A stretch of 64,000 nt of DNA from a bacterium (GCA_025774845.1 JALGZP010000002.1:348-64347); one strand, 5' to 3'; counted from the stretch's first letter, positions 14,057 to 39,195 are shown. The notes: a model not told the origin generated them from the letters alone. A program made the numbers and translations.

Positions 14057-16192
14057 CTATTCTAGCAGGATGATCTTGGTGGCCTCCGAGTGCGGTCTGC
14101 CCTCGCCGGTGACGGCGCTCAGCCGGAGGAAGTAGACACCGCTCGCCGCCCTGTTACCGGTTCCGGTCATTCCGTCCCAGGCCGCTTCATATCGGCCCGG
14201 TCCATCGTTGCGTTTAAGCAGGGTGCGTACGACTCTACCTCTCAGGTCAACCACGCTCAGTTCCACCCTCGCCCGAACGGGCAGGCTGTAACGGATGGTT
14301 GTACCTGAAGCAAACGGGTTTGGCCGGACCCGCTCGAGCCACACCCCACTCCGGGGTCGATCCGGTACGTCATCCACCGACGCAGTCCCCAGGAGCTCGT
14401 GTATGGTATCGATCGCGAGTTTCGGTTTGTGGCCGAAGTAGGGCAGTACCACAATCCCGTCCCGGTCGATTATGAAATTACGGCCGAACGGTAACCCGGT
14501 GTTGGGCTGGGTATAGTGAATCGAGGCGACAGCGGTCGAATCGTGCATAACGGGACCTCTGAGGTAATAGTTATCCCAGAGGATAAACATCCAGGCCAGG
14601 GTCTCTTTGTAGTAACCGCCTGCATTGAGGAGGACTGTAACGACTTCGGGGTTATCTTCGAATTCCTTAACTATCGTGTTCTGCATGTCCGCGACCGCGG
14701 GCAGGCAGGCCGGTCACCACGAGCCGTAAACAGCCATCCAGATGATCTTTCCCAGATGGTCGGAGAGCGTGAAGGTTCCCTCCTCGTATTCACCGGTCTC
14801 ATGGTTCTTCGTGAAGATGGGAAGTGTGAAGTCCACAGCCGGTTCGCCGGGATCGAGATGGTCGGTGCTGGCGAACACCTGGATCGAGAGAGGGCTTTCG
14901 TCGGGGTCGTTGGAGTAGAAGTAGACTATGCCGTAGCCTTCTTCCGGCGTCCCGTCGTGGATGATATTAAAGGTCGCCGTATCCCCTGGGGCGATCGTTC
15001 CACCGGTGTACGAAAGGCTGACAGCCGGTACCGTCACAGTTACGCTGTCGATTATGAGATCACCTGCACCGAAGTTGGAGAGGGTCACGAGCTTCGTGCC
15101 CCCACTGGGTGTAAATCTTATCCTGGAAGTACTCGGTGTTATGTCGGCCTGTGTGCTCATCGAAGCCGGGATCAGCCGGTAAACGTCCATCGAGTTCCAG
15201 GTTGAGCAGAGAACCAGGTTACCATCCGAACCCACTCCGCCGAAACTTCGGAATACAGCATTGGCATTCCTTCGTGCGCCCTTCTCACGTGCGACCAGGG
15301 TTAGGTCACCGTTCGGTGCAACGCTGTATACGCGAACCCCGGAAAAGTCGGTTACGGCGAGATAGTCTTCTACCCACTCCATGTCCTCGGCGGCAGCGTC
15401 GACCGGGTATACCGTGCGGTCAAGGGGATTACCGTTCCGGTAGTGAATCACACCGGCTCCACCCGCCGCAAGATAGACATGACCGTTACGCGAGACCACT
15501 CCCTCAGCCGTCCCCAACGCTGTGGAAAGGTCATCGCCATCCAGGATTACGGGGTTTCCCACATCGGACACGTCGACCACCTTAAGACCACCTGCACCAT
15601 CGGCAACGTATGCCGTGTCGCCTGTGACAACGATATCGAAGGCATCAACGAAGCCTGAGTCCAGCGAGCCGGTCAGAGCAGGATTCAGGGGGTCGGTGAG
15701 ATCATAGACACGTATGCCATGGCTGTGGGCTGCAACGTACAGGTAATCTCCATCGACACACATCTTCTCGAAGTAGACCTTGCGCTGCTTCACTGTCTTC
15801 CGCCGGTAGAGAGTGTTGCCCACACGCTCGATCACTGCGAAGCCGGTTGTAAGCGATACATCGGGGTGGTGAAGATTGGCGTAGATGAAATTGCCGTCCT
15901 TGAGATAGATGTCCCGCGAGTTGATATTCATCATACGTGATATGTAGCTGTTGGTTCCCTCGACGGGGAGAGCAGTGAGATCCACCACGGCAAGAGCGAG
16001 GTTACTCGATACAACTGCCAGCGAGTCCCCAAGCGGGATTACATCGAGGAGCTCATCCGGTTCGCCGGGCTGCCGCAGGTAGCGGCCTGTGTACTCCAGG
16101 ACCATGTCCTGTGAAAAACCCTGCGATGCGAGAACAACAAGAAGAGCGAAGAAGAGCCAGTGCCTGCGAAAACCATCCTTGATTAGATCCAT
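14057..16192 (-). CDS. Exported LVIVD-repeat beta-propeller / Ig-like / TlpA-type redoxin protein with in-frame UGA (candidate Sec, W-U-P-A-C) and Por/FlgD-Ig C-terminal domain
   Basis: Track ORFs 14714..16282 and 14057..14686 share one frame and are separated only by TGA at 14714..14716. Read-through gives DFTLP...FTLSDHLGKIIWMAVYGSW-U-PACLPAVADMQ. Start taken at MDLIKDGFRRHWLFFALLVVLASQGFS. LVIVD-like repeats include GIRVYDLTDPLNP and GLKVVDVSDVGNP. Confidence 0.75.
14681..14704 (-). promoter_or_regulatory. Candidate bacterial SECIS hairpin for UGA 14714
   Basis: mRNA folds as CUGC-CCGC-GGUC-GCGG-(ACAU)-GCAG, starting 10 nt after the UGA. Apical loop is GGUC with G at +18/+19. Confidence 0.5.
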
Positions 16193-16360
16193 CCGTCCAC
16201 CCCACTTTTCCTGAACCTCCACCCAATCATATACAGATGGATAGGAGCACATCCTGGCTATTCTGATGTAGGATGCACCCAACAGTTGCAGTCTAATCCG
16301 GACTTCTCATGGTGTGAGGGGCAGTAACCCCGGGCACTCCGCAGGAGAAAGCTGGAACAG

Positions 16361-16492
16361 CTATGCAGTTGGCTCGGAGACCTTCGCGGCCTTTGCCTTT
16401 GCCTTGATCTTCTTCTTTTTGCGAGGACGGGTGTTACCCGAGCTCTTCTTCCAGATCTTACCCTTCCGTGTCCTTCGATCTCCTCTTCCCAT
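16361..16492 (-). CDS. 30S ribosomal protein THX (bTHX), 43 aa, below the track length cut-off
   Basis: Hand translation gives MGRGDRRTRKGKIWKKSSGNTRPRKKKKIKAKAKAAKVSEPTA. This closely parallels the Thermus Thx sequence as I remember it ([25 protein letters not shown]). GGGAGG lies 8 nt upstream of the ATG. Overlaps the 3' end of the upstream gene by 35 nt in another frame. Confidence 0.7.
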   Translation of the reverse strand: MGRGDRRTRKGKIWKKSSGNTRPRKKKKIKAKAKAAKVSEPTA

Positions 16493-17750
16493 CTTTGATA
16501 CCTCCCATATAGATACAGTCCTCTATTTCGCCATACCCGCGGACGATGTCATCGGCAAAAGCGATGCAGGTCGGAGCACCGCAGCATCCGCAGTCGATCC
16601 TGGGCAGCGCATTGTATATTGTATCCTTCTGTTTCTTCTTTTCAATCGCTGTGGCCAGGTCGCTGGCAAGGGGCCGAAGCGGCCTTGGGGCCAGCTTCTT
16701 TTCAAGGGAATAATGTCCCTTGTTATACTTCTCTATAACTTCATCTCTGTCAACCGGAACCTTACCACCATACTTCCTGAGCAGGTGCAGAGTGCTGCTG
16801 CGTGCGACGTACATGTTCTCAACGACAAGCGATCCACCGATGCAACCACCCAGACACGAGGAGAGTTCTACGAATTCCACATCTCTGAGTTTGGAGTTCT
16901 CGATATCGTCAAGGATCTTTGTAACATCACTCATACCGGAAACGGCGATCGAATGCTCCGCACCTATCAGCCTGGTCATCTCCCCCAACATGGACCAGCC
17001 CGCACCGAACTTGAAGTCCCGGGCAACATCCTCGTCAATCTCTTCATTCTCGAGGTCGGCGACCGCTGAGAAGAGAGGAGCAAAGACATCGACGATCGAC
17101 ACGGCACCGTCTATCCAGGATTTCGCCTTTTCGGCAGGCTGTTTGATTGAGACGATCTTTGCGGGGCAGGTCGTGATATAGACTACACCGATCCCCCCGA
17201 CATCCACACCAAGCTCACGTGCCAGATTCTGCTTAACATCTCTGGCAGCTATCTCCCTGGGAACATCTACAGGCACAACCCTGCCGGTCAGATCCGGGTA
17301 CTTCACCTGAATCAACCTCACGACCGCAGGGCAGAACGAGGAGAGAACGGGGAGCCTGCCCCTGTGTTGGGCAATGGACTCATCGATCGCAATGCTCACC
17401 TCTTGACAAGCGAGGGATAGATCACACACATAGTCGAATCCGATTCGCTTGAGCCCCATTATCACTTTTCTCGGATCGACCTCGGGTCTGAACTGCGAAT
17501 AGAGCACCGGTGACGGTAGTGCTACCTTGTACTTGAAATCCAGAGACTGCGCAAAGGGATCCGTAAGCGGCACGATCGCACCCGAGGGACAGACATTTAT
17601 ACACTCACCGCAATCCACGCACAGCTCTTCAATCACCCTCGCCTTGCCGTCACGCATCCTTATCGCAGCTGTGGGACAGCTGCGCATACACTTCATTCTC
17701 CCGTCGCATCTTTCGTCAACGAACTCTATGGGGTGATAGTATTTTCCCAT
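16458..17750 (-). CDS. [FeFe]-hydrogenase large-subunit homologue of the putative sensory type (no PAS domain)
   Basis: 430 aa. N-terminal 2x[4Fe-4S] region (CMRSCP, CVDCGECINVCP). H-cluster-like motifs are SSFCPAV (L1, proton-relay Cys replaced by Phe), TTCPAK (L2) and SSCLGGCIGG (L3, Ser where catalytic enzymes have Met). C-terminal CGCCGAPTC-x16-C. Confidence 0.8.
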   Translation of the reverse strand: MGKYYHPIEFVDERCDGRMKCMRSCPTAAIRMRDGKARVIEELCVDCGECINVCPSGAIVPLTDPFAQSLDFKYKVALPSPVLYSQFRPEVDPRKVIMGLKRIGFDYVCDLSLACQEVSIAIDESIAQHRGRLPVLSSFCPAVVRLIQVKYPDLTGRVVPVDVPREIAARDVKQNLARELGVDVGGIGVVYITTCPAKIVSIKQPAEKAKSWIDGAVSIVDVFAPLFSAVADLENEEIDEDVARDFKFGAGWSMLGEMTRLIGAEHSIAVSGMSDVTKILDDIENSKLRDVEFVELSSCLGGCIGGSLVVENMYVARSSTLHLLRKYGGKVPVDRDEVIEKYNKGHYSLEKKLAPRPLRPLASDLATAIEKKKQKDTIYNALPRIDCGCCGAPTCIAFADDIVRGYGEIEDCIYMGGIKDGKRRSKDTEG

Positions 17751-17752
17751 CG

Positions 17753-18184
17753 CTAATCCGTGTGAATCGTTATGGCCAGTTTGGTGCCTTTCCCCACCTC
17801 GGATTCGATCTCGAAGTCATCTGCATTACGCTTAATGTTCGGAAGCCCCATTCCCGCCCCGAAACCCATCTCCCTCATTTCAGCGGTCGCGGTCGAATAG
17901 CCCTCCTCCATCGCCCGTTCGATACACTCGATGCCCGGGCCTTCATCCTCTAGCTCGATTCGTATGCTTGTCGGGGTGGCCGACAATCTCACCACCGCCC
18001 TCTTCGCATACATGACGATATTCATCTCGGCTTCATAGGATGCAATGGCCGCCCGTCTGATCTTCACCGGATCGAAACCGATTTCCTTGAGAATCGATTT
18101 TATCTCCGTAGAGACCGTACCCGCGTTGGTGAAGTCCTTGCCAAGGACTGAAAATTCTTGGAAGAACAGAACTTCATCGCTCAT
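17753..18184 (-). CDS. RsbW/SpoIIAB-like anti-sigma-type ATPase (HATPase_c) protein
   Basis: 143 aa. EDEGPGI...GFGAGMGLPNIKRNAD...GKGTKLAITI are GHKL ATPase G-boxes. ATGA overlap with the upstream gene. Confidence 0.75.
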   Translation of the reverse strand: MSDEVLFFQEFSVLGKDFTNAGTVSTEIKSILKEIGFDPVKIRRAAIASYEAEMNIVMYAKRAVVRLSATPTSIRIELEDEGPGIECIERAMEEGYSTATAEMREMGFGAGMGLPNIKRNADDFEIESEVGKGTKLAITIHTD

Positions 18185-18540
18185 TTTCCACCAATCTGGC
18201 TTCCGGATTTCATGCCCTTTTCATAGAGGCGGCCGCATGCTTCGAACATCGAAAGCGGACATGACAACAGCGGAATACCCTTCTGTCCGGCCAGCTTCAC
18301 CGCCTCCTCGTCGGGCGTCTTCCCGCGTACATAGACTATCGCTCGCACCTCTGCTACATGAGAGGTTATGACGGATTGGACGTTCCTTAAGCCCGTGAGA
18401 AGAATCCCGCCAGGTGCGGCGAACGCAAGCACATCGCTCATGAGATCGGCGCCGCACACTTCCTCGTAGTCGTGATCGAGCATATCTTCTCCCGTAATCA
18501 CCTCACACTCAATTACCTGGCATATTTCCTTTAGTGTCAA
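18181..18540 (-). CDS. DRTGG-domain-like small protein
   Basis: Track ORF is 18181..18606. I place the start at TTG 18540..18538, which sits 5 nt after GCAGGAGG and just past the upstream stop. Product (M)TLKEICQVIECEVITGED...GGILLTGL...VYVRGK resembles the small DRTGG proteins of NuoEF/[FeFe]-hydrogenase operons. Confidence 0.6.
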   Translation of the reverse strand: MTLKEICQVIECEVITGEDMLDHDYEEVCGADLMSDVLAFAAPGGILLTGLRNVQSVITSHVAEVRAIVYVRGKTPDEEAVKLAGQKGIPLLSCPLSMFEACGRLYEKGMKSGSQIGGK

Positions 18541-18556
18541 TGAAGCCTCCTGCTGT

Positions 18557-20875
18557 TCATACTCCCAGATACTTGCATATCGTACCAGCCGCGCCAACGC
18601 CCTCAACGAATGCTTCTTCGGCTATGACCGGAGACCGGCCAAAACCGCAGGCGAAGATGCCGGAAGCACTTGTGGCGAATGGGGCGGCCAGCGAATCACC
18701 CGTCGCTATGAACTTAAGATCGTCAAGCCTGACTCCGGCCACGCGCGCCAGCTCTTCGTGGTCCGAGCCGTGGAGATGCCCGACTGAAAGCACCACGGCG
18801 TCAAACTCGTTGGAAACACTCTTCCCATCCGTCGAGTCGACGGCTACCTTGAGAGCCCCTTCCGTAGTAATCCGTGGCTCACCCGTGATCTCGATGAAGT
18901 TTACCCCGAGGTCGGCGGCATCCGTGTAGAGATCCTCCTCGAAGCCAAAAACCCTGATCCCTCTGTGGAACACGGTTACCTCTGCGCCGGGATTGTCCTC
19001 TTTGAGTCTGAGCACGTTGGCCAGGGCTTGCTTGCAGCAGTACCTGCTGCAGTAGGGGTGTTCGGCGCTGCGTGCACCTACACACTGAATCATCGCCACC
19101 CGCTTCCAGGAAGCCCGGCCTCCGGTGATACGCTGGCGGAACTCACTCTGGGTCAGGATTGCCTCGTGCTCTCCATGGTGGTACCCCGCAGGCACATAGG
19201 CGTTCGCGCCGGTTGCCATCAGCATCGCACCTGCTTCGAGCGTCTTCTCACCCTGGGGGGTGGAAACCTTGACCGTGATCTTTCCATCCGACGTTTCTAC
19301 GGCCGCTACGGTGCTTTCCTTAAGAACCGTTGCAACCGGGTTCGTCTCTATGGCTTTCACAAAACCGTCAACCACATCGACCTCTGTGCCTTCGGCGATG
19401 GCGGCGAAAGTCAGAGGCTTGCCTATTTCCGCCGACTTCTCAACCACTGTCACTTCTACACCACGCCGCACGAGCTCACTCGCGGCGGCGAGACCCGAGG
19501 TGCCTCCGCCGACCACAACCACACTCGCGGGTCTCTTCTCCCTCCCGGCCTCCGGCAGCTGCGAGGCAGAGGAGCCCTCCGTGACCGAGGCCAATTTCGC
19601 CTTCAGGTCGCCGCTCAGGCCTTCACCACCCACAATCGTGACGCTTCCCCGGGGGAGACCCGAGACCGTCTCAAAGAGCTCTTCATGACTGCCTTTGTGA
19701 CATCCCACCACGACTATCGATGATGTCTCATCCAGATTCGCCCTCATCGCGGCTCTGCCGTCCTTGTAACAAAGGAACGGGTGGACGATACAAAGCCCTT
19801 CGACATCCGACCGGTTCACACCTGCAAGCTCGAGACCGTATTCACAGGCATACACGAACGTCTTGCCCTTGTGCCGGGGTGACTGCTGAGACGGCACAGC
19901 CCCTGAGGAGTCGAGTGATCTGGTTGATGCCGCCAATGCATCGATCACACTCCGGTAAACCGGAGCCGGTCCGCAAACGGCACCACCAAATGATACGGCT
20001 TCGGTCTCGGCGATGAGACTTCCTATGCTGCGTTCAATGAACCCGAACTTGTTGACCCTGATCCCCGCCGTCCTGGCATAGCGCTTGAAGCCGCCAAGGG
20101 CATGGACACCAACGGCAAGCACGACGAGATCGAATTTCGCTTCGGCGGTTTCACCCGCGGCTGAGTATCCAACACTCAGGGTCCCATCCCCGGGATCCTC
20201 CTTGACCGAGGTCACCTCTCCCTCGATGAACTCGATCCAGTTCTCGCCCTGAAGCTCCGAAAGATCGAGCTCACTCCCTTTACCCACTGGTCTTAAGCCC
20301 CTGTGGAATACATGGACCTCCACATCGCCGGCAAGCTTCCTGGCATGTCTGGCCTGTGAAAACGTACGCGAGCAGCAGTCCGATGAGCAGAAGTTCGCGC
20401 CAATGCCCTCTTCCCTCGAACCGACACACTGAATGAAAGCGATTCGTTTCGGTATGTCCCCGTCAAAGGGTCTTACCAGGAGTCCGCCGAATGGACCCGT
20501 GGGACTCACCAGACGCTCGAATTCGAAACTGGTTATCACGTTCGCAGCGTCCGCGTAGCCGAGCTCCTTCTTCCCGTCGGGGTTAAAGACCTGACCGTCG
20601 GACGTGAATACTATGGCGTCTGCTTCGAGCTCGACCCTGCTTGCCGCTTCATCGTAGACGATCGCCTTGGGATCACACTCTGCAAGACACAGCCCGCAGC
20701 CGATACAGCGCCGGCAGCTCAGGCACCGTGCTGCTTCCTTAAGAACCATCTCCTCCGAAAGCCCGAGTTCAACCTCTTCGAAGTTGAGATTCCTCTCTTC
20801 AAGCGGCAGTTCGGGCATCCTATTCCGCTCGGAAGGAATGTCTTTGAACTCGGGTATGAACTTCGGTTTCTTCAT
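18557..20875 (-). CDS. Large HdrA-related flavoprotein: N-terminal Fe-S module plus two HdrA-like modules
   Basis: 772 aa. CLSCRRCIGCGLCLAEC, then two CxGxR...C..CC signatures (IQCVGSREEGIGANFCSSDCC and IQCVGARSAEHPYCSRYCC) and one GGGTSG FAD site. Confidence 0.8.
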   Translation of the reverse strand: MKKPKFIPEFKDIPSERNRMPELPLEERNLNFEEVELGLSEEMVLKEAARCLSCRRCIGCGLCLAECDPKAIVYDEAASRVELEADAIVFTSDGQVFNPDGKKELGYADAANVITSFEFERLVSPTGPFGGLLVRPFDGDIPKRIAFIQCVGSREEGIGANFCSSDCCSRTFSQARHARKLAGDVEVHVFHRGLRPVGKGSELDLSELQGENWIEFIEGEVTSVKEDPGDGTLSVGYSAAGETAEAKFDLVVLAVGVHALGGFKRYARTAGIRVNKFGFIERSIGSLIAETEAVSFGGAVCGPAPVYRSVIDALAASTRSLDSSGAVPSQQSPRHKGKTFVYACEYGLELAGVNRSDVEGLCIVHPFLCYKDGRAAMRANLDETSSIVVVGCHKGSHEELFETVSGLPRGSVTIVGGEGLSGDLKAKLASVTEGSSASQLPEAGREKRPASVVVVGGGTSGLAAASELVRRGVEVTVVEKSAEIGKPLTFAAIAEGTEVDVVDGFVKAIETNPVATVLKESTVAAVETSDGKITVKVSTPQGEKTLEAGAMLMATGANAYVPAGYHHGEHEAILTQSEFRQRITGGRASWKRVAMIQCVGARSAEHPYCSRYCCKQALANVLRLKEDNPGAEVTVFHRGIRVFGFEEDLYTDAADLGVNFIEITGEPRITTEGALKVAVDSTDGKSVSNEFDAVVLSVGHLHGSDHEELARVAGVRLDDLKFIATGDSLAAPFATSASGIFACGFGRSPVIAEEAFVEGVGAAGTICKYLGV

Positions 20876-20877
20876 AT

Positions 20878-22566
20878 CTAACTCAGGTACTCCTTCATTG
20901 AATCGGCTGCTATGTGGCCCGCGCGTATTGCCTCAATCACCGTGGCAGGCCCGGTCACACCATCCCCCCCCGCATATATGCCGGGACGGTTGGTGGCCAT
21001 AGTCCTTTCGTCAACCACAAACGAGTTCCAACGCGATATCTCGAAGCCATGCTCGTCCGGGAGGAACGTGATATCCGGCTGCTGGCTGATGGCCGGAATG
21101 ATGAGATCGGCCTCGACGGTGAATTCCGAACCCTCGACAGGAATCGGCCGTCTTCGGCCGCTTGCATCGAGTTTGCCCAGTCTCATCTTGGTGCATTCCA
21201 TGCCGGCTACCTTTCCGCCTTTACCCAGGATCTTGACCGGTGCGGCAAGGTAGTGAATCTTGACGCCCTCCTCCTCCGCTCCCTCGACCTCCCAGTCGTT
21301 TGCAGGCATCTCCCTTCGCGATCTCCTGTAGAGTATGGTGACCTCCTCACAACCCAACCTGAGCGCCGTCCTTGCCGAATCGATCGCCGAGTTTCCGCCG
21401 CCTATGACTATCACCTTGTTACCCGGTCTTGTCTTGTCTCCGAGATTCACATCCCGGAGGAACTTTATACAGTCAAGAAAACCTTCGTAGTCGTCTTCCC
21501 CGGGCACCCTGAGTTTAAGACCTTCATATGCACCCACGCCCAGGAAGATTCCCTTAAAGCCCTGCTTGAAGAGGTCGTCGACCGTGAACTCCTTCGTGAG
21601 AGGGGTGTTGAGTTTTATCTCGACACCAAGATCTTCGATGTATGCAACATCACTCAAGAGGATGTCCCTGGGCAGCCTGTATTCGGGAATTCCGAGGTGC
21701 ATCATGCCGCCGGGCACGGGAGCGGCCTCAAAAACGGTTACCCGATAACCTTCAAGCGCGAGATCGTGTGCAACCGTAAGACCCGCGGGGCCGGCCCCCA
21801 CCACTGCCACTTTGGTCTTAAGGTCTTTCTTGGGCTTCGGCGGTACGAACTTGCCGGCCTTTCGCTGTGCGACCTCATAATCGCTTACAAAACGCTTGAG
21901 AGCATCAATCGCAATCGCCTCGTCCTGACGCCCCCTGTTACAGACCGTCTCACACGGATGAGGACAGATCCGGCCGCAAACTGCTGGCAGCGGATTCCTG
22001 TCACGAATAACTCTTATTGCTTCTTCGTACCGGCCACCGGCGATCAGTCCCACGTACCTTCTTATGTCTATGTGAACGGGGCATCGCTCCTGGCAGGCGG
22101 GTGTTTCCTTCTCGATATTGTACTCGCCCCCGAAAGTACGCGGCCCCGCAAAGTCTATCGCGGTCCTGAGCATCAAACCCTCGTTATAGCTATCATATGG
22201 CTTTATCGGACAGACAAGCAGGCACTCGGCGCAGGCATTACAGGCCTCGGTTACCCTGCCCGGCTGGTGAGTTAGACTGACTTTGATCCTGTCGTCTTTC
22301 TTACGCACGCTCCCGAGGGTCGAGTTCGTGAGTACCCTGATCCCCGGGTGAGCAAGAACCTCATTCACCAACTTGGATGAAAGACAGACCGATGGGAAGC
22401 CCTCGGGAACCACCCGTTCCTGCTTGAGCAAGAGCCCGCCCAGGAACGGCGACTCCTCAACAAGCGCAACCCTGGCGCCCGATCCCGCAACCTCGAGTGC
22501 TGCCGTAAGCCCGGTGATACCGCCACCGACAACAACTACTTCCCTCGGGGAAGACTTATCACTCAT
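20878..22566 (-). CDS. GltD/NfnB-like NAD(P)H oxidoreductase subunit with an N-terminal HdrA-like FAD fragment
   Basis: Start taken at MSDKSS (ATGAGTGA overlap with the mvhD stop). VVVGGGITG...ACNACAECLLVCP is followed by CGRICPHPCETVCNRG and VAVVGAGPAGL...PGGMMHLGIPEYRLPRD...VIGGGNSAIDSAR, typical of GltD/NfnB. Confidence 0.8.
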   Translation of the reverse strand: MSDKSSPREVVVVGGGITGLTAALEVAGSGARVALVEESPFLGGLLLKQERVVPEGFPSVCLSSKLVNEVLAHPGIRVLTNSTLGSVRKKDDRIKVSLTHQPGRVTEACNACAECLLVCPIKPYDSYNEGLMLRTAIDFAGPRTFGGEYNIEKETPACQERCPVHIDIRRYVGLIAGGRYEEAIRVIRDRNPLPAVCGRICPHPCETVCNRGRQDEAIAIDALKRFVSDYEVAQRKAGKFVPPKPKKDLKTKVAVVGAGPAGLTVAHDLALEGYRVTVFEAAPVPGGMMHLGIPEYRLPRDILLSDVAYIEDLGVEIKLNTPLTKEFTVDDLFKQGFKGIFLGVGAYEGLKLRVPGEDDYEGFLDCIKFLRDVNLGDKTRPGNKVIVIGGGNSAIDSARTALRLGCEEVTILYRRSRREMPANDWEVEGAEEEGVKIHYLAAPVKILGKGGKVAGMECTKMRLGKLDASGRRRPIPVEGSEFTVEADLIIPAISQQPDITFLPDEHGFEISRWNSFVVDERTMATNRPGIYAGGDGVTGPATVIEAIRAGHIAADSMKEYLS

Positions 22567-23347
22567 ATGCAGTCTCACCGTTACCTGAAAGTTCCCACAT
22601 CGGGGTGTTTCCCACGACGGAGTGTATCTCAGCAAAACCCATCTTCTTTAGATCCGCCATCTGTCTTACGAGAATCTTCGGTGCCGTGTCCATCTTGGTG
22701 GCCAGCTCTTTTACCGAATGGGGTTTACCCTTGAGCCGTTCCAGTATCTCTCTCAGTCTGAATTCATCCATCGCTATCTCGTCAAAGAGCCTACCTATCT
22801 CATGGGCCGTGAACTTCTCCCCGTAGAGGTTACCCTTCTCGGTGAATTCCACGATCTTGCCCGTGACCCATCTGATCTTACGGCCGCCGAGCGCCTTCCC
22901 CGCAGCCTGAAGCTTGACCTCAAGATCGTTCTTATCGATGCCCTCGGGCTTACCCAGGGGACCCAGCTCGGTGATATCCTTCTGGAACTCACCTGCGAAC
23001 TCGACGAACTTGTTGCCCTCAGCGCTCGACATCATACGCATCCGGAGTCTGGCAGGATCTATACCCGCCATCCTGAGGACCCGCTTGGTGATTTCCATCT
23101 TGCCCTCGGCATGGAGGTTACCCGAGGTATAATGGCACTCTCCACGCTTGCAGGCGCCCACGAACACTCCGTCCGCACCCGCCAGCAATGACTCGATGAC
23201 CATCACAGGATCCACCCTTCCCGAACACATCACTCTCACAACCCTGATGTCGGGTGCATATTGAAACCTCGCTACCCCGGCGAGGTCAGCCGCACTGTAT
23301 GCTCACCAGTTACAGCAGAAAGCTATGATGTGCGGTTTGAAACTCAT
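22559..23347 (-). CDS. mvhD: MvhD-like iron-sulfur subunit with in-frame UGA (candidate Sec in CCNW-U)
   Basis: Track ORF starts at 23239. Extending upstream in frame gives [47 protein letters not shown], with TGA at 23303..23305. The ATG at 23347 lies 2 nt after the upstream stop. Without the extension the conserved N-terminal Cys block of MvhD is missing. Confidence 0.8.
23267..23285 (-). promoter_or_regulatory. Candidate bacterial SECIS hairpin for UGA 23303
   Basis: mRNA folds as CCUCGC-CGGGGUA-GCGAGG. The 6-bp stem starts 18 nt after the UGA and loop Gs lie at +25 to +28. Confidence 0.6.
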
Positions 23348-23349
23348 AC

Positions 23350-25038
23350 TCACTCCTTTTCGAAAGCTGCCCGTATCTGGGCCGTCAATTGCTCGTCGCT
23401 ATAATGCTTCATTGTAATTGCCCCCCGGTAGCAGGTCGCTCCGCACGTTCCGCAACCCTTGCAGGCGACATCGATTGTCCGTGCTTTCTCGCCGGCCTCG
23501 GTCTCAATCAGCTCAATCGCTCCGTATGGACAGAGCGCCACACAGAGTCCGCACCCCCTGCAGTCTTCCTCGGTTATGAATGAGACAATCGGTTCAACCT
23601 TGACCCGACCGCTTTCGAGGAACGTGGATGCACGCGACGCGGCACCGAGTGCCTGCTCGATGCACTCCTGGATGCCGGCGGGCCACCGTGCGGTTCCGCA
23701 GACAAAGATCCCGTCGGTCGCAAAGTCAAGCGGTCTGAGCTTCACGTGGGCCTCGAGGAAGAAGCCGTATTCATCGAGCGGGACCTTGAGCATCCTGGAA
23801 AGAGCTTCATTCGTACCGGCCGGTACAAGCGGGGTCTCAAGCACAAGGAGATCATACGGGAGCACCATCTCTCTCCCAAGTATGGCACTCGTCACCTTGA
23901 CCTCGCCCTTCTCGGCAAGCGGCGGTGCGTCGTCTGGGTAATTCACGAACCTGACACCGGCTTCCTTGGCATCCATCAGCAGGCTCTCGTTCTTGATCCC
24001 GTAACACATGAGATCCCGGTAGAGCATGGTCACATCAGATTTCCACTTCTTGCGAATGAGGATCGCATTCTTGATTGCCGTCATACAGCATATACGCGAG
24101 CAGTAAAGCCTGTCCCGCATTCTCGACCCGACGCAACCGATCATGACAACGTTCTTAGGACGGGTCCCGGGCTTTGCGAGCAGGCCTTCAAGTTGAAGTT
24201 GGGTTACAGCCCGCTTTGAATCAAAGCCGTACTGTCCTTCCGGAACCAGTACTTCCGCTCCTGTCGCCAGGATTATGATACCTGCCGTCACAGGTTCCTT
24301 AAGCGATGTCACGGATACGATGTAGTTACCTATGTAACCCTTGACCTCGGTCACTTCCGATGACTTGAGAACCTTGATGCGCCGGGCTTTTCCTACACGC
24401 CCCACCAGACCCTTCACATACTCCGCCGCCGGTTTCTCATGCGGGTAGATCCAGTTGACCGCCCTTAAGAGCCCACCGAGTTGTTTCTGTTTCTCAACCA
24501 GAACCACCTCAAACCCTCGTCTCGCAAGCTCGAGCGAAGCGGTCATGCCCGAGATACCTCCACCGATCACAAGCGCGCGTTTCGTCACATCCCCGATGAT
24601 GGGTTCCATCGGCTCAAGATACGCCGCCCGTGCTACACCCATCCTTATGAGGTCCTTCGCCTTCTCCGTAGCCGCCTCGCGATCTTCCTTATGCACCCAC
24701 GAGCAGTGCTCCCTGATATTGACGAATTCAAAATAGTAGGGATTAAGCCCGGCATCTTCGCATGCCGCACGGAATGTTGGCTCATGTGTCCTCGGTGTAC
24801 AGGCGGCGACAACGACCCGTTCAAGTTTGTTATCGGTAATGGCCTGACGGATGTCATTGATCCCGGCTTCCGAACACGAGTAAAGATTCTCTCTCACAAA
24901 GATCACATTTGGAAGACCCGACGCGTAATCGGCCACGGTTTTGGCATCCAGGAAGCCCGCAATATTCGTCCCGCAGTTACAGACGAAAACCCCTATACGC
25001 GGGCCGTTCACCGTGTCTTTCCTGCCTTGCTTACTCAT
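23350..25038 (-). CDS. HdrA paralogue with intact N-terminal Cys domain and C-terminal 2x[4Fe-4S] ferredoxin, lacking the FPTxDCSxC block
   Basis: 562 aa. RIGVFVCNCGTNIAG, VVVAACTPRTHEP, NIREHCSWVH, VIGGGISG, IGCVGSRMRDRLYCSRICCM, and CRGCGLCVALCP / CKGCGTCGATC. ATGA overlap with the upstream gene. Confidence 0.85.
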   Translation of the reverse strand: MSKQGRKDTVNGPRIGVFVCNCGTNIAGFLDAKTVADYASGLPNVIFVRENLYSCSEAGINDIRQAITDNKLERVVVAACTPRTHEPTFRAACEDAGLNPYYFEFVNIREHCSWVHKEDREAATEKAKDLIRMGVARAAYLEPMEPIIGDVTKRALVIGGGISGMTASLELARRGFEVVLVEKQKQLGGLLRAVNWIYPHEKPAAEYVKGLVGRVGKARRIKVLKSSEVTEVKGYIGNYIVSVTSLKEPVTAGIIILATGAEVLVPEGQYGFDSKRAVTQLQLEGLLAKPGTRPKNVVMIGCVGSRMRDRLYCSRICCMTAIKNAILIRKKWKSDVTMLYRDLMCYGIKNESLLMDAKEAGVRFVNYPDDAPPLAEKGEVKVTSAILGREMVLPYDLLVLETPLVPAGTNEALSRMLKVPLDEYGFFLEAHVKLRPLDFATDGIFVCGTARWPAGIQECIEQALGAASRASTFLESGRVKVEPIVSFITEEDCRGCGLCVALCPYGAIELIETEAGEKARTIDVACKGCGTCGATCYRGAITMKHYSDEQLTAQIRAAFEKE

Positions 25039-26330
25039 ACGCCGACTTCCTCATATATCCTGGCCGCCGCCCGCTCTGCGGCGGCACTGGCCTGGCTTAC
25101 CGCCTCGGGTATATCACACGGCCCCTTACAGAACCCACAGGCGAAGATGCCTGCCACACTGGTATCCGCCGGTTGCTCGGGGGGACACAGGATGAAACCG
25201 TACTTGTCCGCCTTGATCCGGAGAAGTTTCGCGAGCCCAAGCGCTCCCCTTGACGGCATCGCCGCGGTTGCCAGCACGACCATTTCGGTCTCAAGCGATT
25301 CGACTTTTCTCTTTCTCGTGTCCTCGTACCACACGATGGGATTCCCGTTGGGACCATCCTCGATCTCGGCAACCCTTCCCCTTATGTACTGGACCCCGTA
25401 CTCTTCCGCCGCCCGCTTCTCGTACTTCTGGAACCCCTTGCCCACGTTCCGGAGGTCCGTGTGGAAGACGTAGGAAACCGATTCGGGATCGTGTTCCCTC
25501 GCCAGCATGGCATCCTTGATCGAATACATACAGCAAACGCTCGAGCAATACGCGCAGTTGTTGAGATCTCTCGAGCCCACACACTGTACGTAAGCCACCT
25601 TCTTGGCCAGCTTGCCGTCGGAGGGTCTGTGGAGATGCCCTCCGGTGGGACCGGTCGCATTTATGAGTCTCTCATACTGTAAGCCGGTTATTACATTCTG
25701 GATCTTGCCAAAACCGTAGTGGGTAAGCGCCGTCGGGTCGAAGATATCAAGCCCGGTCGCGACTATTACCGCATCGACGTCGAGAGCAAGGATCTTGTCC
25801 TTCATCTCGTAGTCTATCGCGCCCTTGTCGCAGATCTTCTTACACACGCCACACTTGCCCTTGGTGAAGTATATGCAGTGGTCGCTGTCTATGGTCATTA
25901 CCGCGGGAATGCCCTGTGAGAAGTAAAGGTATATCGCTTTCCGTTTCCTCAAGTCCATGTCGAAGGCATCGGGTGCTTTTCCCGGGCACTTGCTCACACA
26001 GTCTCCACAGGCATTACAAATTTCTTCATCGACGTAGCGGGTGCGCTTTCTCACCTTGAGTGAGAACTTGCCGCCTTTCCGCTTAAGCCCCTCTATCTCA
26101 CTGTACGCCAGCAGTTCGACCCTGGGATGCCGACCGGCATCCAGCATTTTAGGCGCGAGAATTCATATGGAGCAGTCATTGGTGGGAAAAGTCTTATCAA
26201 GCTGTGCCATCACCCCGCCTATGCTGGGTTTCTTCTCGATCAGATAGACTTGAATACCCATCTCACCGAGGTCTAGCGCAGCCTGAATACCGGCAATCCC
26301 ACCGCCGATCACTGCAACCTTACCTTCCAC
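25035..26330 (-). CDS. hdrA: HdrA core (FAD domain plus inserted ferredoxin) with in-frame UGA (candidate Sec in FPTNDCSI-U)
   Basis: Track ORFs 26163..26372 and 25035..26147 share one frame and are separated only by TGA at 26163..26165. Read-through gives [15 protein letters not shown]...[29 protein letters not shown]...[12 protein letters not shown]...[22 protein letters not shown]. Start placed at GTG 26330, 8 nt after GGGAGG; the ATG at 26372 is an alternative. Confidence 0.85.
26122..26144 (-). promoter_or_regulatory. Candidate bacterial SECIS hairpin for UGA 26163
   Basis: mRNA folds as CUGGAUGCC-GGUC-GGCAUC(C)CAG. A 7-bp perfect core extends to 9 bp with one bulged C. It starts 19 nt after the UGA and has a GGUC tetraloop. 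Confidence 0.7.
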
Positions 26331-27462
26331 GCTTCTTACCTCCCAATGATCCGGCCACAAGCGTGACCGCATCGGTTATCTCTATTTGACCTGAGCAATC
26401 CTCATCCCGCAGGGCGCATCTCAGGTGGATATTGCACTTCGGACAAGCGGTAACAAGCACCTGCGCGCCTGTTGAGATGGCTTCATCAAGTCTCTCGACC
26501 TGGATCTTCTTGTTGACCCTCGAGCAGCTCACCCAGTTGCTTGAACCACAGCAAAGTGCATCCTTACCCCTTCGCGTCATTTCCGCCAGCTCGAGATCGG
26601 GTATGCTCTTGAGCACGTTCCGAGGTTCCTCGATAATGTCATCAGACTTGGCGAGCCTGCAGGGATCGTGGTAGGTCACTTTGGTTTTGCGTGAATTCAA
26701 TCGTATGTCACCCATCTTTTCACTCAGAAGATCAAGGAGGAAGACCACCTCGAGCCCCATACCCCTTACGAACTCCGAATAGACGTGTTTGAACATGTGA
26801 TAGCATTCCGGACAGGAGAACACGACACGTTTTGCACCCGTCTTCTTTATAGCTGCGACATTACGTTTAGCAAGTTCCTTTACGAGATCGCCTCCCCCGG
26901 TCCAGTACTCATCATGACCGCAGCACACCTCACCTTCGCTGACGGCAGGTATGATGCCCAACTGATTGAGCAGACGTACGCTTGAGTTCCCGATCCCCCT
27001 GCCGTCGAAACCGATTTCCTTGAACACGACATCAAGAAAAGGCAGGCAGCCTCCGAAGTAATACGTGCTTGATCTCGACCGTGTCTTCGCGCCACGCCCC
27101 AGCCAGGAAGCCTGTCGTCTGAACCCTGGCATACGTTGCAGGTCGATCAGGGCTGCGAGTGTGTCCGCATGGGTGCAGACACCGCTCTCACCAACCTGTC
27201 TTGCGCGCTCCCTCATCGATCTCATGAAACCCGTGAAATCAACCGTGGACGGACACCGGAGATCACAGGTGCCGCAGGTGAGACAGCTCCACATTTCCGG
27301 GTCGTGCACACTTTCATCCTCACTGAAGAGGAGCGCCTTCTCCACGGTCAGCCGCGGTGAGTAGGCGTCGCGATGCCTGGAAACGGGACAACTGCCCGTA
27401 CAGATACCGCACTCGAGGCAGAGATATGCCTTTGTCTTATCTACGGCCGCGCGAAGCGACAC
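26320..27462 (-). CDS. HdrD-like (fused HdrC/HdrB) Fe-S protein with two CCG domains
   Basis: [12 protein letters not shown] and [12 protein letters not shown] (HdrC-like), then VCCGHDEYW and [11 protein letters not shown] motifs. Start placed at GTG 27462 after AGGAGGAGG; the track start at 27510 is a TTG. Confidence 0.8.
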
Positions 27463-29612: not shown

Positions 29613-29629
29613 GGTCTCCTCAAACAAAC

Positions 29630-30277
29630 TCAGGGACTTCCGTAATGCGTCTCACACACAATACACCTGAAAGTGTCCTTCGAGCCTCCAACGCTGTGAA
29701 GACTCCTTCGCGCAAATACTTTCCTAAGGTCAAACGTTCTGGCCGGACAGATCGTGGTACAGGTACCGCATCCCACGCAGACATTCGATTCCTGGCCGAA
29801 GGGTGGTACCACCTCACTCTCAGGACCTCGATTGGCGAATCCGATCGCCCCGACCCCGACGATCTCCTTGCAGGCCCTGACACACATCCCACACAGATAG
29901 CACTCTTCCTCACCCTTCGGAAACGGATTGGTTTTGACTCCGAGCTCCTTTGCCTTGTGCCTTATGATTTCGATGTCGGGGCACCGGGCGAGAAGCAGGG
30001 TTATGATCATCCTGCGGATTTCTGTTACCAGCTTTGTCTCCGTCCTCACAACCATTCCGTCCGCCACCGGTGTCACACACGAAGCCATCGTTCTTGTCCG
30101 CCCCCCCTGCTTGACCTCGACAACGCACAGCCGGCACGACCCGATCGGTGTCAGGGCTTCATGGTAACAAAGTGTCGGGATCTCGATCCCCATCTCCTTC
30201 GCTACCTCGAGGATGGTCCGGCCCTTTTCGGCCTTCCGGTTCCTGCCGTCGATCCTGATGCTCAATGTGTCGCTCAT
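29630..30277 (-). CDS. NuoG/HydA-N-terminal-like [2Fe-2S] plus 2x[4Fe-4S] ferredoxin subunit with no catalytic domain
   Basis: 215 aa. IRIDG...CYHEALTPIGSCRLCVVEV...ASC (plant-type 2Fe-2S), then CYLCGMCVRAC and CVGCGTCTTICP. Confidence 0.8.
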   Translation of the reverse strand: MSDTLSIRIDGRNRKAEKGRTILEVAKEMGIEIPTLCYHEALTPIGSCRLCVVEVKQGGRTRTMASCVTPVADGMVVRTETKLVTEIRRMIITLLLARCPDIEIIRHKAKELGVKTNPFPKGEEECYLCGMCVRACKEIVGVGAIGFANRGPESEVVPPFGQESNVCVGCGTCTTICPARTFDLRKVFARRSLHSVGGSKDTFRCIVCETHYGSP

Positions 30278-30283
30278 TTGGAT

Positions 30284-32113: not shown

Positions 32114-32981
32114 CCAGAACCTGCGGGATCTTCTCCTGGGTCATCTTCCCGTAGAATTTCCCGTCAACAACGAATACCGGAGCCAGTCCGCAGCAACCCA
32201 CACATCTCACGGACTCAAGCGAGAACTTGTCATCATAGGTGGTCTCACCCGTGTGAATTCCCAACTCCCGCTCGAAACTGTCGAGAAGGTTGGTGCCTCC
32301 CCTCACATGACAGGCAGTCCCCAGACACACGTGGATCATGTGTCTCCCCCTCGGAAGCAGGCTGAATGACTTGTAGAAGGTCGCAATTCCATAAACCCTC
32401 GGAAGATCGATGTTGACTCTTCCTGCGACAAACCTCAGCGCCTCCTGAGGCAGGTAGTTGAGTTCCTTCTGTATATCCTGCAAGTAGGAAATCAGCATGG
32501 ATTCTGAAAAGCGATGTTTGGCAAGGATCCCGTCAATCGCAGCAAGACTTGCGGGATCGTCAAAACTCTTGATCCTCCGCTCCCTGGCTTTCTCCCTGGT
32601 TTCGACCTCCATGCGTTCCTTACCCAACGCGTGGGATATCATGTCGGAGAGTTCCGGCATGGGGCTGAACTTGGAGATGTAGTTGTAGGCTCCTCTCCGC
32701 ATCGCCTCCACGGCCCCTTCGACGGTCGGAGTTGCCGTCTCGCCTATGATCGGAACCATCGGCATGATATCGTGGACGGTCTTCAGAAGCATCAGGCCGT
32801 CATCATGAGGAAGATCGAGATCAATGATAACGAGATGGGGAGGTCTTGCACCTATCTCGGAAAGCAAGGCGGCCCCGTCGGGAGCCAGTCGTACCGCATA
32901 CCCGTGGCCGGTCAGTGCGCTTTCTAACTCACTCCGCCTTCCGGGTTCTTGCTCCAATACTAGAAGAACAAGTTCGATCAA
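32100..32981 (-). CDS. Receiver (REC)-domain fused to NuoE/HydC-like [2Fe-2S] subunit
   Basis: 293 aa with a TTG start after AAAGGA. N-terminus LVLLVLEQEPGRR...HLVIIDLDLPHDDG...ISKF follows a CheY-like pattern. C-terminus HVCLGTACHVRG...VRCVGCCGLAPV carries the NuoE Cx4C...Cx3C cluster motif. Confidence 0.8.
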   Translation of the reverse strand: MIELVLLVLEQEPGRRSELESALTGHGYAVRLAPDGAALLSEIGARPPHLVIIDLDLPHDDGLMLLKTVHDIMPMVPIIGETATPTVEGAVEAMRRGAYNYISKFSPMPELSDMISHALGKERMEVETREKARERRIKSFDDPASLAAIDGILAKHRFSESMLISYLQDIQKELNYLPQEALRFVAGRVNIDLPRVYGIATFYKSFSLLPRGRHMIHVCLGTACHVRGGTNLLDSFERELGIHTGETTYDDKFSLESVRCVGCCGLAPVFVVDGKFYGKMTQEKIPQVLGGYD

Positions 32982-33376: not shown

Positions 33377-33411
33377 ATCGTTCCCCGTTTGTGTAGTTCG
33401 GCCCTGATCGC

Positions 33412-33750: not shown

Positions 33751-33775
33751 GGTTTGGCCTCCTTCATTTGGCGAT

Positions 33776-34309
33776 CTAACCCTCAGGGGTCAGGCTGAGC
33801 ATGCCCACATCCTTGAGCATCTCGCCACGACATAGATCGGGTCTTCTTGTCAGGGAACCGGGTACAACCAGTATCTTCTTGCCGGGCGTACGGAGTCTCG
33901 ATGTAAAGTAGTCGGTCAAGATCACCAGTTTCTCGACCGGCAGATCGACCTCTTCCCCGAGTTGATAGGACAGGGCGGCATAGAGCCAGACGTTCTGTCC
34001 CTCGCAGATCCGGGACATTATGTTTACATGGCACTCAGGATCACAACCCACGCAATGCATCAGACCCATCAGGTCTTCGAACGGGACGGTCTTCTCGCAC
34101 CTGGTGCAAACCATATCGAACTTGACCGACTGGGCGCTCCCGGCATAGTTCCAGTAGTGATCGTCCTCTTTGTATTCATCCTTTGGAGGAACATCTTCAT
34201 AGGAGAAGTACACGCGATTCTTGTTACAGTGGTAACATTTCTCAGTTACTATGAAACCGTCCCTGAGATTTGTCATTTTCCAGGTGTGGTCGCACTCATC
34301 ACTAACCAT
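33776..34309 (-). CDS. Cys-rich (zinc-ribbon-like) hypothetical protein, first gene of the operon
   Basis: 177 aa with GGGAG RBS. CxxC-type pairs CYHC, CTRC and CVGCDPEC. I recognise no family. Confidence 0.6.
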   Translation of the reverse strand: MVSDECDHTWKMTNLRDGFIVTEKCYHCNKNRVYFSYEDVPPKDEYKEDDHYWNYAGSAQSVKFDMVCTRCEKTVPFEDLMGLMHCVGCDPECHVNIMSRICEGQNVWLYAALSYQLGEEVDLPVEKLVILTDYFTSRLRTPGKKILVVPGSLTRRPDLCRGEMLKDVGMLSLTPEG

Positions 34310-34373
34310 ATTGTTCTCCCTGCGCGGATTCAGTCAGATCCCGACCCGAGGCCCACCCGAGTCCTTACGACAC

Positions 34374-34402
34374 AGAATACGGGGGCAAAACGGCAATGTC
34401 AA
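34374..34402 (-). promoter_or_regulatory. Candidate sigma70 promoter for the Hdr/Nuo operon (TTGACA-N17-TATTCT)
   Basis: Minus strand reads TTGACA (34402..34397), a 17-nt spacer, then TATTCT (34379..34374). Lies about 65 nt upstream of the ATG at 34309. Confidence 0.4.
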
Positions 34403-34411
34403 GCAGGATAA

Positions 34412-35698: not shown

Positions 35699-35776
35699 AG
35701 CCTCCGATACGTATGATGAGATCTATGTTAAGCGGAGGCTACAGGATGGGGGCGTAAATGTCAAGGTCGGGCGGTC

Positions 35777-37138: not shown

Positions 37139-37185
37139 ATATTACTATATTGCACTCAACGTCATGGGGAAAGTGCTTTCGATCG

Positions 37186-39195
37186 CTAACGTGAGAGGAT
37201 GATCTTCTTGCTCACCATGCCGGGGCCTGTAGCTACCGAGACGAAGTAAACGCCGGGGGCCACTCTATCACCGTACGAGTCTCTGAGATTCCAGGTAAAC
37301 GGCCCGGCTTCTCCGATAGCACCCTTCCTTACGACCCGGCCCAGGATGTCATAGATCTCGACTCTTCCTTTCGCACCCGGCCGGGACAACGAGATTGCAG
37401 CATAAGATGTTGCCGGGTTGGGGTAGCATGTCACGACCAGTGCCGGATTCTCGATATCGATTCCGCCCAGACCGCCGAACCAGTCCACAATCCTTGAGAG
37501 CAGGAGCACACGGTCCTCCGGAGTCGAGATCGCTTCGAACCCAAAGGAGAGATAGACGACCTTCGAGGAATCCGAGTCGAATCGGACCCCACCATGCTTG
37601 GCCGGATCACTGTAGTCAAAAATGACCTGAGCGGGTGCGACCGAATCTATCACATCGGGGTAGTTCTGGTTATTTGCCCCGTCTCCACCCTGGATCGTAA
37701 TCGACAAGCCGTCGGTTATGGGATCACCCGCCCGCCCGGACAAATTCCAGAGGTTGGAATTCGGCATGATGTGCCGTGCGTGAAGGTAGTTCCTGTAGAA
37801 TGTCTCGGAGTCCTCCGAATATTCATGACTGTTGATATCGTCAAGACCCCAGCCGATGTCCTGCCCCGTCAGGAAGAGCCGGCCGTCGCCTGCGAGGTAT
37901 GAGGTTAGAACCGATTGATCGTGCACATCAAGACTCGGGGCGGCATGGCCGGTGAACCAGACCACAAATTCCGTCGCGTCGAGGTCGTCAAGCTCGGGAA
38001 CGTCGATTGTCCGATCCCAGGTCCCCCACGAGATACCTAAGGAATCGAGTGCGTCTTCGTAGTAAGGCTCGAGATCATAGCCTCCATCGTCATCGACTAT
38101 GAGAGCGCATACACCTGAGATGGCAAGGTACCGGAGACTCCGGCTGAAAGCAGGGTCCCGGCGCGATGTCAGGGTCAGAGTCGCCACCCCGGTACCGGTG
38201 TCATAGCCGCAGCCGATGGTAACGTTGATGGCACAGGAGCTGTCACTCTCGAGGGCGACTGAACCACCCAGTGGAACGCCACCCACGACTTCGTAATCTG
38301 CGGACCAGTCCGAGGGTAGCTGCTGTGTGAAGTCTATGTCAAACGTGTCCACAACCGACGTGCGACTTAACAGCGTTCCGGGGAAGACTGCGTCCCTTCC
38401 TTCACCGGCAACATCCCCGCGTCTCGGCGCGGTGTATCTTGCCCAGGCCGCCGGTGGCTGTGCGGACGACACTGCCTGGACTATACTCGTGTCTGTTTCA
38501 TCCTGGATAAAAACAATGGTGCTGACGTTGGCCGGGTCCCACGATGGGTCAACCTCAAAGGCGAGATTGAAGTCCAGGGTTTCCCCGGCGTCTATCGCGA
38601 ACGCGATCCCGCCGGGATCGGGAACGAAATCCCTGAAGACAAAGTTGAAAATGTCCTGACCGTTGGGTGCCTCATAGTATATGCTGTCCTCGATCGCGGC
38701 CGCTCTTAGGATCAGGCTGTCCGCCAAAGGCTCCCACTCCGCTATCACGCTTATGTCAACAAAGCAGGAATCGCCGCTCAATGAGTCACTCGCCACCAGC
38801 TTTATCGGGCTCGGGACGTCAAGATTCTCATCGATCACATCCTTGATCGGTCCAACGAAGCAGGACTTCGGTCGCTTGACGCCGTCGATGAACATCGCCG
38901 GCATCTTGGTGATTGAGTAGTAGCCTAAGCGTTCCTCAATCTCCACCGGGTTGGCAAGGTAGAAGGGATCTAACGCCCACGGATCCCTTCCGTGGTATCT
39001 GATCATCACAACATCAACTGGACTGTAATAAACGAGCATCGAATCCAAACTTGGATTCAGGCAGCGGCCTCACCCGCAGCCGACATTGATCGCGTGCTCG
39101 ATCAGCACCGTCCGTCTCGCCGCGTCCGCAGTACCGACGCCAACAGCAGCCAGAACCGCCATCGCTACCAGACACCAGATTAAGAATCTTTGCAT
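37186..39195 (-). CDS. Exported thioredoxin-fold / Ig-like protein with in-frame UGA (candidate Sec, GCG-U-GRC) and Por/FlgD-Ig C-terminal domain
   Basis: Track ORFs 39070..39270 and 37186..39048 share one frame and are separated by TGA at 39070..39072. Only the upstream piece has a signal peptide (MQRFLIWCLVAMAVLAAVGVGTADA). Read-through gives RRTVLIEHAINVGCG-U-GRCLNPSLDSMLVYY...IRYHGRDPW...PAMFIDG. C-terminus is YPNPATSYAAISL...GVYFVSV. Confidence 0.65.
39041..39058 (-). promoter_or_regulatory. Candidate bacterial SECIS hairpin for UGA 39070
   Basis: Perfect palindrome GAAUCCAA-GU-UUGGAUUC, realistically a 6-bp stem with an AAGUUU loop. Starts 12 nt after the UGA with the loop G at +20. 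Confidence 0.5.

Follow-up and report, generated by a model that had tools for sequence, protein, structure and literature searches.

Four in-frame UGA codons that interrupt redox-type genes in a 64,000-nucleotide stretch of a bacterial contig (GCA_025774845.1, JALGZP010000002.1:348-64347; hereafter, the window) are, judging from comparative sequence analysis, very probably selenocysteine (Sec) codons decoded by the standard bacterial pathway. The four genes, here called A to D, lie between positions 14,057 and 39,195. In the proposed mechanism, a stem-loop inside each open reading frame (ORF), with an apical loop (a G, then G or U) located 17–27 nt 3′ of the UGA, would act as a bacterial Sec insertion sequence (bSECIS) element and recruit the SelB–GTP–Sec-tRNA(Sec) complex to the ribosome, such that Sec would be inserted in place of termination by release factor 2; UGAs without a bSECIS element would terminate translation as normal. 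An Eisenbacteria-like (FCB-group) bacterium would thereby make four redox selenoproteins. B would be a HdrA-like flavoprotein with a CxxU pair adjoining its flavin adenine dinucleotide (FAD) and D a MvhD-like iron-sulfur subunit with a CxxU motif, both belonging to one Hdr/NuoEF-type electron-bifurcation gene cluster; A would be an LVIVD propeller fused to a redoxin with a UxxC motif and C an Omp28-like protein of thioredoxin (Trx) fold with the motif C-G-U(-x-x-C), this second pair being putative exported thiol/selenol oxidoreductases with type IX secretion system (T9SS) tails.

All four UGAs are on the minus strand and fall within redox Cys motifs, as a preliminary description of this DNA had pointed out (GSW-U-PAC in A, DCSI-U-ILAPK in B, GCG-U-GRC in C and CCNW-U-AYS in D; coordinates, given on the plus strand throughout, are collected in Table 1). 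Stop-to-stop analysis resolved each gene into a same-frame ORF pair split by a single TGA (530 + 218 codons in A, 70 + 375 in B and 71 + 627 in C), with a shorter upstream part in D (31 + 247 codons). A domain or structure alignment (to Pfam or to solved structures) crosses the TGA in A, B and D, and gene C has its signal peptide 5′ and its T9SS tail 3′ of the TGA. Beyond these four, no further credible in-frame TGA was found in the whole window: TGA-split ORF pairs at 18223, 29632, 34336, 40540, 46795, 52695 and 55555 were dismissed because the ORFs overlapped out of frame, the extension was junk or the C-terminus was already complete. TGA also serves as an ordinary stop, ending 16 of the 47 genes called by a greedy procedure, including those that stop at 18557, 22559, 23350 and 25035, which had already been singled out as normal terminations.

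At every one of the four sites, the in-frame UGA stands opposite a Cys of homologous proteins, with sequence conserved on both sides, and full-length homologues containing Cys were found for all four families. Among the 120 homologues closest to A, about 105 stop exactly before the TGA (...YGSW) and 14 are full length with WCPAC, and the codon is TGA in 17 of 17 metagenome relatives. For B, 93 of the 120 closest homologues take the nearest Met 3′ of the TGA as their start, and 22 run full length with DCSxC; the N-terminal fragment is annotated in orthologues as a protein of 54–58 aa. TGA occupies the B codon in five related loci (L003 and L149-L152) and the D codon in four of these (L149-L152), so that four of four syntenic loci, among them the complete 2.69-Mb Eiseniibacteriota genome CP070702.1 and a locus with a protein recorded under Latescibacteria at NCBI, carry both. 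For C, nine full-length genomic orthologues divide into six with TGA and three with TGC at this codon. The site in B also has an experimental precedent: B aligns with HdrA (5ODC_A) over residues 142-564 (E = 3e-129, identity at the level of 55–60%), and the matching position of Methanococcus maripaludis HdrA is Sec197, where a selenylsulfide near FAD has been seen experimentally (PMC13518236). HdrA, MvhD, redoxin/Prx-like UxxC proteins and GOS_C are all catalogued prokaryotic selenoprotein families (PMC13188914, Table 1; PMC2398784). In the pooled counts, identical codons among conserved amino acids were in excess in the SECIS zone (14 of 31, versus 13 of 87 elsewhere; P = 0.001). It is this comparative conservation, and not hairpin structure, that is decisive for Sec, and the earlier proposal that UGA decoding here depends on context is supported by the Cys-aligned TGAs, by TGA in orthologues from independent assemblies and by the ordinary TGA stops.

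The hairpins conform to the published consensus. As drawn in Fig. 2 of PMC13188914, which summarizes Zhang & Gladyshev (2005), the bSECIS model has an apical loop of 3–9 nt on an upper stem of 4–16 bp, a G at loop position 1 or 2 that is usually followed by G or U, a UGA-to-loop spacing of 16–37 nt and a minimum free energy of −7.5 kcal/mol or lower. Loop and stem sizes in the window fit these ranges (4 nt and 4 bp, extending to 10, in A; 4 nt and at least 5 bp in B; 4 nt and 7 bp in C; 7 nt and 8 bp in D), the loop-G rule is satisfied at all four sites and kept in orthologues, and the spacings (17 nt in A, 27 in B, 18 in C and 23 in D) are within the range and constant inside each family; A, B and D satisfy every rule including energy, and C all except energy. 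The loops recognized in the preliminary description (GGUC twice, CGGGGUA and AAGUUU), with a loop G at +18 to +29, were all recovered when counted from the base after the UGA (positions in Table 1 count the U of UGA as +1). Its further claim that the sites share one grammar held in so far as all fit the bSECIS model; the grammar is merely the published consensus, is poorly specific, comprises two spacing classes (17–18 nt in A and C, with the loop starting at +21 or +22, and 23–27 nt in D and B, starting at +27 or +31) and includes a 7-nt loop in D. The 17–18-nt spacing of A and C is presumably that of Escherichia coli fdhF, the prototype of the bSECIS consensus, and we take G23 and U24 in the loop of C to occupy the fdhF positions.

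Within families, the hairpins are conserved together with the TGA. The hairpin of A is kept in 16 relatives, with four pairs changed on both sides, a result equalled by 2 of 500 shuffles and not reached by slid controls, which were lower. The hairpin of B is nucleotide-identical in the four syntenic loci, and its SECIS zone has 6 of 12 synonymous sites frozen, versus 4 of 33 elsewhere (P = 0.013; window, L149-L152 and L003); that of D is kept in the same four loci with one compensatory change from C-G to U-A. The GAAUCCA/UGGAUUC stem is kept, allowing for one G-U wobble, in all seven TGA forms of C (including the window), where AGUU, GGUC or AGGU caps it, whereas two distant Cys forms (L007 and L008) use GC-rich codons, unable to pair, for an almost identical peptide and have no stem. 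Pairs were counted family by family and combined with a descriptor scan: in a MAFFT alignment, the hairpins of A and C did not line up structurally, and the cross-family covariance model suggested in the preliminary description was set aside because a model of about 18 nt would largely recover its own training hairpins.

Several results weigh against the Sec interpretation, or at least against the hairpins as evidence for it. The minimal hairpin of C, at −7.1 kcal/mol, is marginally above the −7.5 kcal/mol cut-off (C orthologues with outer pairs fold to −12 to −16.8 kcal/mol), and fold z-scores of just −0.9 to −1.8 against dinucleotide shuffles show that stability is not significantly above that of shuffled sequence. 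The full consensus is also satisfied at 4 of the 16 ordinary TGA stops and at 28% of 400 out-of-frame TGAs inside genes, and thus does not single out Sec UGAs from other UGAs. No Rfam family was detected, either across the whole window at the gathering score or in 121-nt pieces around each site at E ≤ 10, where chance microRNA and small nucleolar RNA matches alone appeared. Finally, selA, selB, selD and tRNA-Sec are all missing from the 64-kb window, and ARAGORN found no tRNA-Sec in 1.35 Mb of related loci, in which selA, selB and selD were not searched.

Judged by structure alone, the sites stand out only slightly from chance. A looser hairpin rule is satisfied at 58% of control TGAs; with the full rule, four of four sites at P = 0.28 each corresponds to 0.006. 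A narrow descriptor, defined after the sites had been seen (a tetraloop of the form N-G-[G/U]-N closed by four pairs, with six or more of seven stem pairs and a spacing of 16–37), matched 36 of 2,443 TGA triplets on both strands (1.5%), A, B and C among them, and none of the other matches that were compared with the called genes was in frame inside a gene. The comparison with ordinary stops that the preliminary description had suggested gave equivalent hairpins at 75–100% of the sites against 25–28% of controls. The hairpin grammar is thus real, yet a poor stand-alone detector. Two ordinary TGA stops, at 46795 (plus strand) and 55553 (minus strand), have strong downstream hairpins (−18.1 and −12.9 kcal/mol, respectively) in agreement with the bSECIS rules; the former is probably a terminator between convergent genes, since the upstream protein finishes with a complete T9SS tail.

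These same weaknesses would suit readthrough that is independent of any SECIS element, in which UGA is read as Trp or Cys by near-cognate decoding, or weakly suppressed without SelB, with the hairpins doing no more than delaying termination: they are unremarkable in folding stability, and neither the Sec machinery in the window nor tRNA-Sec in the related loci was found. We nevertheless consider this explanation highly improbable, as the UGA always stands for a redox-motif Cys and never for another residue, the loop G or GU and the spacing are kept inside each family, the position in B is that of a proven Sec in methanogen HdrA (PMC13518236) and the families are catalogued selenoproteins (PMC13188914).

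The public records could instead be taken at face value, with genuine stops and genes that are really split or truncated. In the NCBI and JGI records of the 65,105-nt source contig, A is divided into proteins of 512/522 and 209 aa, and B, C and D are shortened to 370, 617 and 223 aa, respectively; orthologous loci are annotated with the same splitting, and the earlier statement about truncation of all four genes by standard gene calling is thus literally true; the fragments that gene callers yield have plausible start codons. For such pseudogenes, a break at the same codon across dozens of independent assemblies (in most of the closest homologues of A and B, as above), conserved flanks on both sides, single domains that cross the break and full-length Cys homologues of all four would be hard to explain, and the downstream fragment of C would be without the signal peptide that its T9SS tail needs; we therefore give this alternative very little credence. 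A genome-wide change of code, with UGA assigned to a standard amino acid (as in genetic codes 4 or 25), which a local density of four in-frame UGAs per 25 kb might suggest, can be dismissed almost entirely, given that the 16 genes ending at TGA stop where expected, overlap in operons and encode intact C-terminal domains, that the only in-frame TGAs are these four, every one at a Cys position, and that the G+C content of the window is 56%.

Table 1. Minus-strand features of the four candidate selenoprotein genes.
Feature	Position	Strand	Details
Gene A	14057..16192	-	711 aa read through; start set by homology to P0045
Sec codon of A (Sec493, W-U-P-A-C)	14714..14716	-	14 full-length homologues have the first Cys of WCPAC here
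SECIS of A	14681..14708	-	CUGC.CUG.CCGC-GGUC-GCGG.CAU.GCAG; loop GGUC +21..24; −13.0 kcal/mol
Gene B	25035..26372	-	HdrA-like flavoprotein, 445 aa from ATG 26372
Sec codon of B	26163..26165	-	Aligned with Cys197 of HdrA 5ODC_A
SECIS of B	26119..26147	-	GGAUGCC-GGUC-GGCAUCC, extended by CUG/CAG over bulge; loop +31..34; −17.9 kcal/mol
Gene C	37186..39195	-	669 aa; Pfam, NCBIfam, AlphaFold2 model of homologue
Sec codon of C (Sec42, G-C-G-U-G-R-C)	39070..39072	-	TGA/TGC orthologues; C-G-C in P0005-P0022
SECIS of C	39041..39058	-	GAAUCCA-AGUU-UGGAUUC, 7-bp stem; loop +22..25 (A-AGUU-U); −7.1 kcal/mol
Gene D	22559..23347	-	262 aa; MvhD/FlpD domain PF02662, 159.9 bits vs 22.3, residues 7-129, crosses TGA
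Sec codon of D (Sec15, CCNW-U)	23303..23305	-	Aligned with last Cys of FCCNWC in MvhD 5ODC_D and 8RVU_F
SECIS of D	23265..23287	-	GACCUCGC-CGGGGUA-GCGAGGUU, 8-bp stem; 7-nt loop +27..33; −17.2 kcal/mol

Two of the four predicted selenoproteins, A and C, have signal-peptide-like N-termini (by inspection) and T9SS sorting domains that score over curated cut-offs, in agreement with the initial impression that half of the sites are on exported proteins. Gene A encodes a signal peptide, an LVIVD beta-propeller, an Ig-like domain, a redoxin/thioredoxin-like domain and a T9SS C-terminal sorting domain (FlgD_ig; TIGR04183, 24.3 bits versus a cut-off of 23). Its match to Redoxin PF08534 crosses the TGA and scores 19.5 bits, under the gathering score of 26.6; as Cys-form homologues carry PF08534/PF00578 matches, the domain is best described, from these profile matches, as divergent redoxin-like. 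It resembles the catalogued UxxC selenoproteins of the redoxin, Prx-like 3 and thiol-disulfide isomerase-like type (PF08534, cd02966; PMC13188914, Table 1; PMC2398784, Table 2) in placing W-U-P-x-C at the start of helix 1; unlike them, its redoxin domain trails a propeller and an Ig-like module, about 440 aa together, and is followed by a T9SS tail, and no description of an LVIVD propeller-redoxin fusion was found in the selenoprotein literature searched. Its SECIS element encodes the peptide C-L-P-A-V-A-D-M-Q. All Sec forms of A (L069-L090) read U-P-A-C-x-P-A-V-A-D-M-Q-N and the Cys forms C-P-A-C-P-S-A-E-x-D-M-Q-N; the P-A-V-A-D of the Sec forms is conserved because its codons (CCC GCG GUC GCG GAC) constitute the SECIS stem-loop, a case in which RNA structure shapes the protein. 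Propeller residues 144-180 also gave a sub-threshold match (16.7 bits versus 34) to SBP56, the 56-kDa selenium-binding protein family, which probably reflects just the common propeller fold.

Gene C encodes a signal peptide, a thioredoxin-fold/Omp28-like N-domain, Ig-like domains, a GATase1-like domain and a T9SS C-terminal sorting domain (TIGR04183, 36.8 versus 23; PF18962, Por_Secre_tail, 33.3 versus 27). Its best protein matches are annotated as ‘Omp28-related outer membrane protein’ in Candidatus Eisenbacteria metagenome-assembled genomes, the nearest of which begin just 3′ of the TGA. The match to Omp28 PF11551 is above threshold (38.0 bits versus 34.9), and that to NF045500, the Omp28-related selenoprotein model, is far under its cut-off (21.2 bits versus 200). 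In an AlphaFold2 model of a Cys homologue (P0006; pLDDT 85.5), the N-domain runs beta1-[CGC]-alpha1-beta2-alpha2-beta3-beta4-alpha3, an order of secondary structure that points to a thioredoxin fold; a whole-chain Foldseek search with the same model returned mostly Ig-like domains and failed to single out the Trx domain. C shares with GOS_C (NF045500; PMC2398784, PMC13188914) an Omp28-like nature, a predicted Trx-fold N-domain and Sec in the CxxC region. Unlike the UxxC of NF045500, the invariant pair of the C clade is C-G-[U/C] (CxU/CxC), the downstream Cys of UxxC being gone in several Cys forms, and C is a longer protein of 669 aa with added Ig-like and GATase1-like domains and a T9SS tail. 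A close Cys (TGC) orthologue (L002:1937-2000) retains the hairpin GAAUCCA-AGGU-UGGAUUC and looks like a recent replacement of Sec by Cys. The domain at residues ~360-580 of C (VDDDGG...TGQDIG...GDGANNQ; loci L013-L068) is also found fused to M6, M14, S8 and C1 peptidases and other proteins in Anaerolineae, archaea, WOR-3 and others; among solved structures, the domain in the AlphaFold2 model best resembles a class-I glutamine amidotransferase fold (8rp2_BBB; TMt 0.66).

Taken together, A and C could represent an as yet undescribed class of T9SS-secreted selenoproteins of the cell surface or extracellular space in FCB-group candidate phyla, with the C-G-U of C acting as a selenium version of the CXC disulfide-isomerase motif (not UxxC), with A coupling a Sec redoxin to an LVIVD propeller, and with Eisenbacteria as an unrecognized Sec-using, possibly Sec-rich, phylum; we put this joint reading forward tentatively and regard it as rather doubtful. 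A literature search found no published link between Eisenbacteria and Sec. The description of the lineage as Sec-rich is unsupported, since two of the four sites (B and D) share one operon and the evidence is confined to 64 kb. The organism itself appears to rely heavily on type IX secretion, and the window holds two further large T9SS-type cargo proteins: a 1,558-aa papain-family C1 peptidase with lectin, fn3 and beta-helix domains (9283-13959, minus strand) and a 1,013-aa beta-propeller protein (43756-46797, plus strand).

The other two genes, B and D, fall within the long run in which the minus strand holds most genes (between 9 and 43 kb). B has a thioredoxin-reductase-like core with an inserted ferredoxin domain, and its start is more likely GTG 26330 (431 aa), as annotated in orthologues, than the ATG of Table 1. 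We term it HdrA-like because it does not reach the cut-offs for full-length HdrA (506 bits versus 1,100 for NF040770 and 377 versus 1,400 for NF041778), only positions 136-558 of the 777-position profile being present. B shares the CxxU column beside FAD with Methanococcus HdrA (Sec197) and with HdrA-like selenoproteins of sulfate reducers, and neighbours MvhD and HdrBC-like genes, as in HdrA systems. Unlike methanogen HdrA, it is without N- and C-terminal ferredoxin domains and sits in a bacterial NuoEF/GltD-type cluster of an FCB-group bacterium, outside any methanogenesis context. D, like the MvhD/VhuD/FrhD selenoproteins (PF02662, listed with the motif CxxU in PMC13188914, Table 1), has Sec for the last Cys of CCNWC; unlike them, it has one Sec rather than two and is fused to a C-terminal helix-turn-helix (HTH)-like domain of about 120 aa. 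This winged-HTH-like extension (residues ~140-262) has weak HTH_11/ArsR/Rrf2-like matches, and orthologues of D are annotated at 214-235 aa.

The redox cluster that includes B and D (16458-32981, minus strand) contains a [FeFe]-hydrogenase-like C-domain protein, an HATPase_c_2 kinase-like protein, four paralogues of HdrA type, two MvhD genes, an HdrBC-like CCG protein, and GltD/NfnB-like, Fer2 and NuoF-like proteins, with two DRTGG proteins nearby; the second MvhD (27437-27880) is without the CCNWC motif (VPCKWHPL). Gene order is kept in the Eisenbacteria- and Latescibacteria-type loci (L149-L152), and, judging by gene content, the cluster looks like an NADH- or H2-linked electron-bifurcating complex of Hdr type. 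At its head is an unusual fusion of a response-regulator receiver to a NuoE-type thioredoxin-like [2Fe-2S] ferredoxin (32100-32981, minus strand). A 177-aa Cys/His-rich protein with several CxxC pairs and no Pfam match (33776-34309, minus strand) lies between radical-SAM/B12 and DRTGG genes.

Conceptually, nothing here is new: this is ordinary bacterial Sec recoding, by a known mechanism and in four families known before. The consequences are for how such genomes are read. These selenoprotein genes are stored as fragments in NCBI and JGI, and many homologues are likewise cut at the Sec codon, with the result that Hdr-type electron-bifurcating complexes are mis-described in metabolic reconstructions of Eisenbacteria, Latescibacteria, Zixibacteria, KSB1, Gemmatimonadota and others, and that exported redox enzymes are also missed. 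If A and C do form an exported class, exported redox enzymes of Eisenbacteria would be systematically absent from annotations. The locus would add an uncultured phylum to the users of Sec, and places Sec in proteins predicted to carry T9SS sorting tails.

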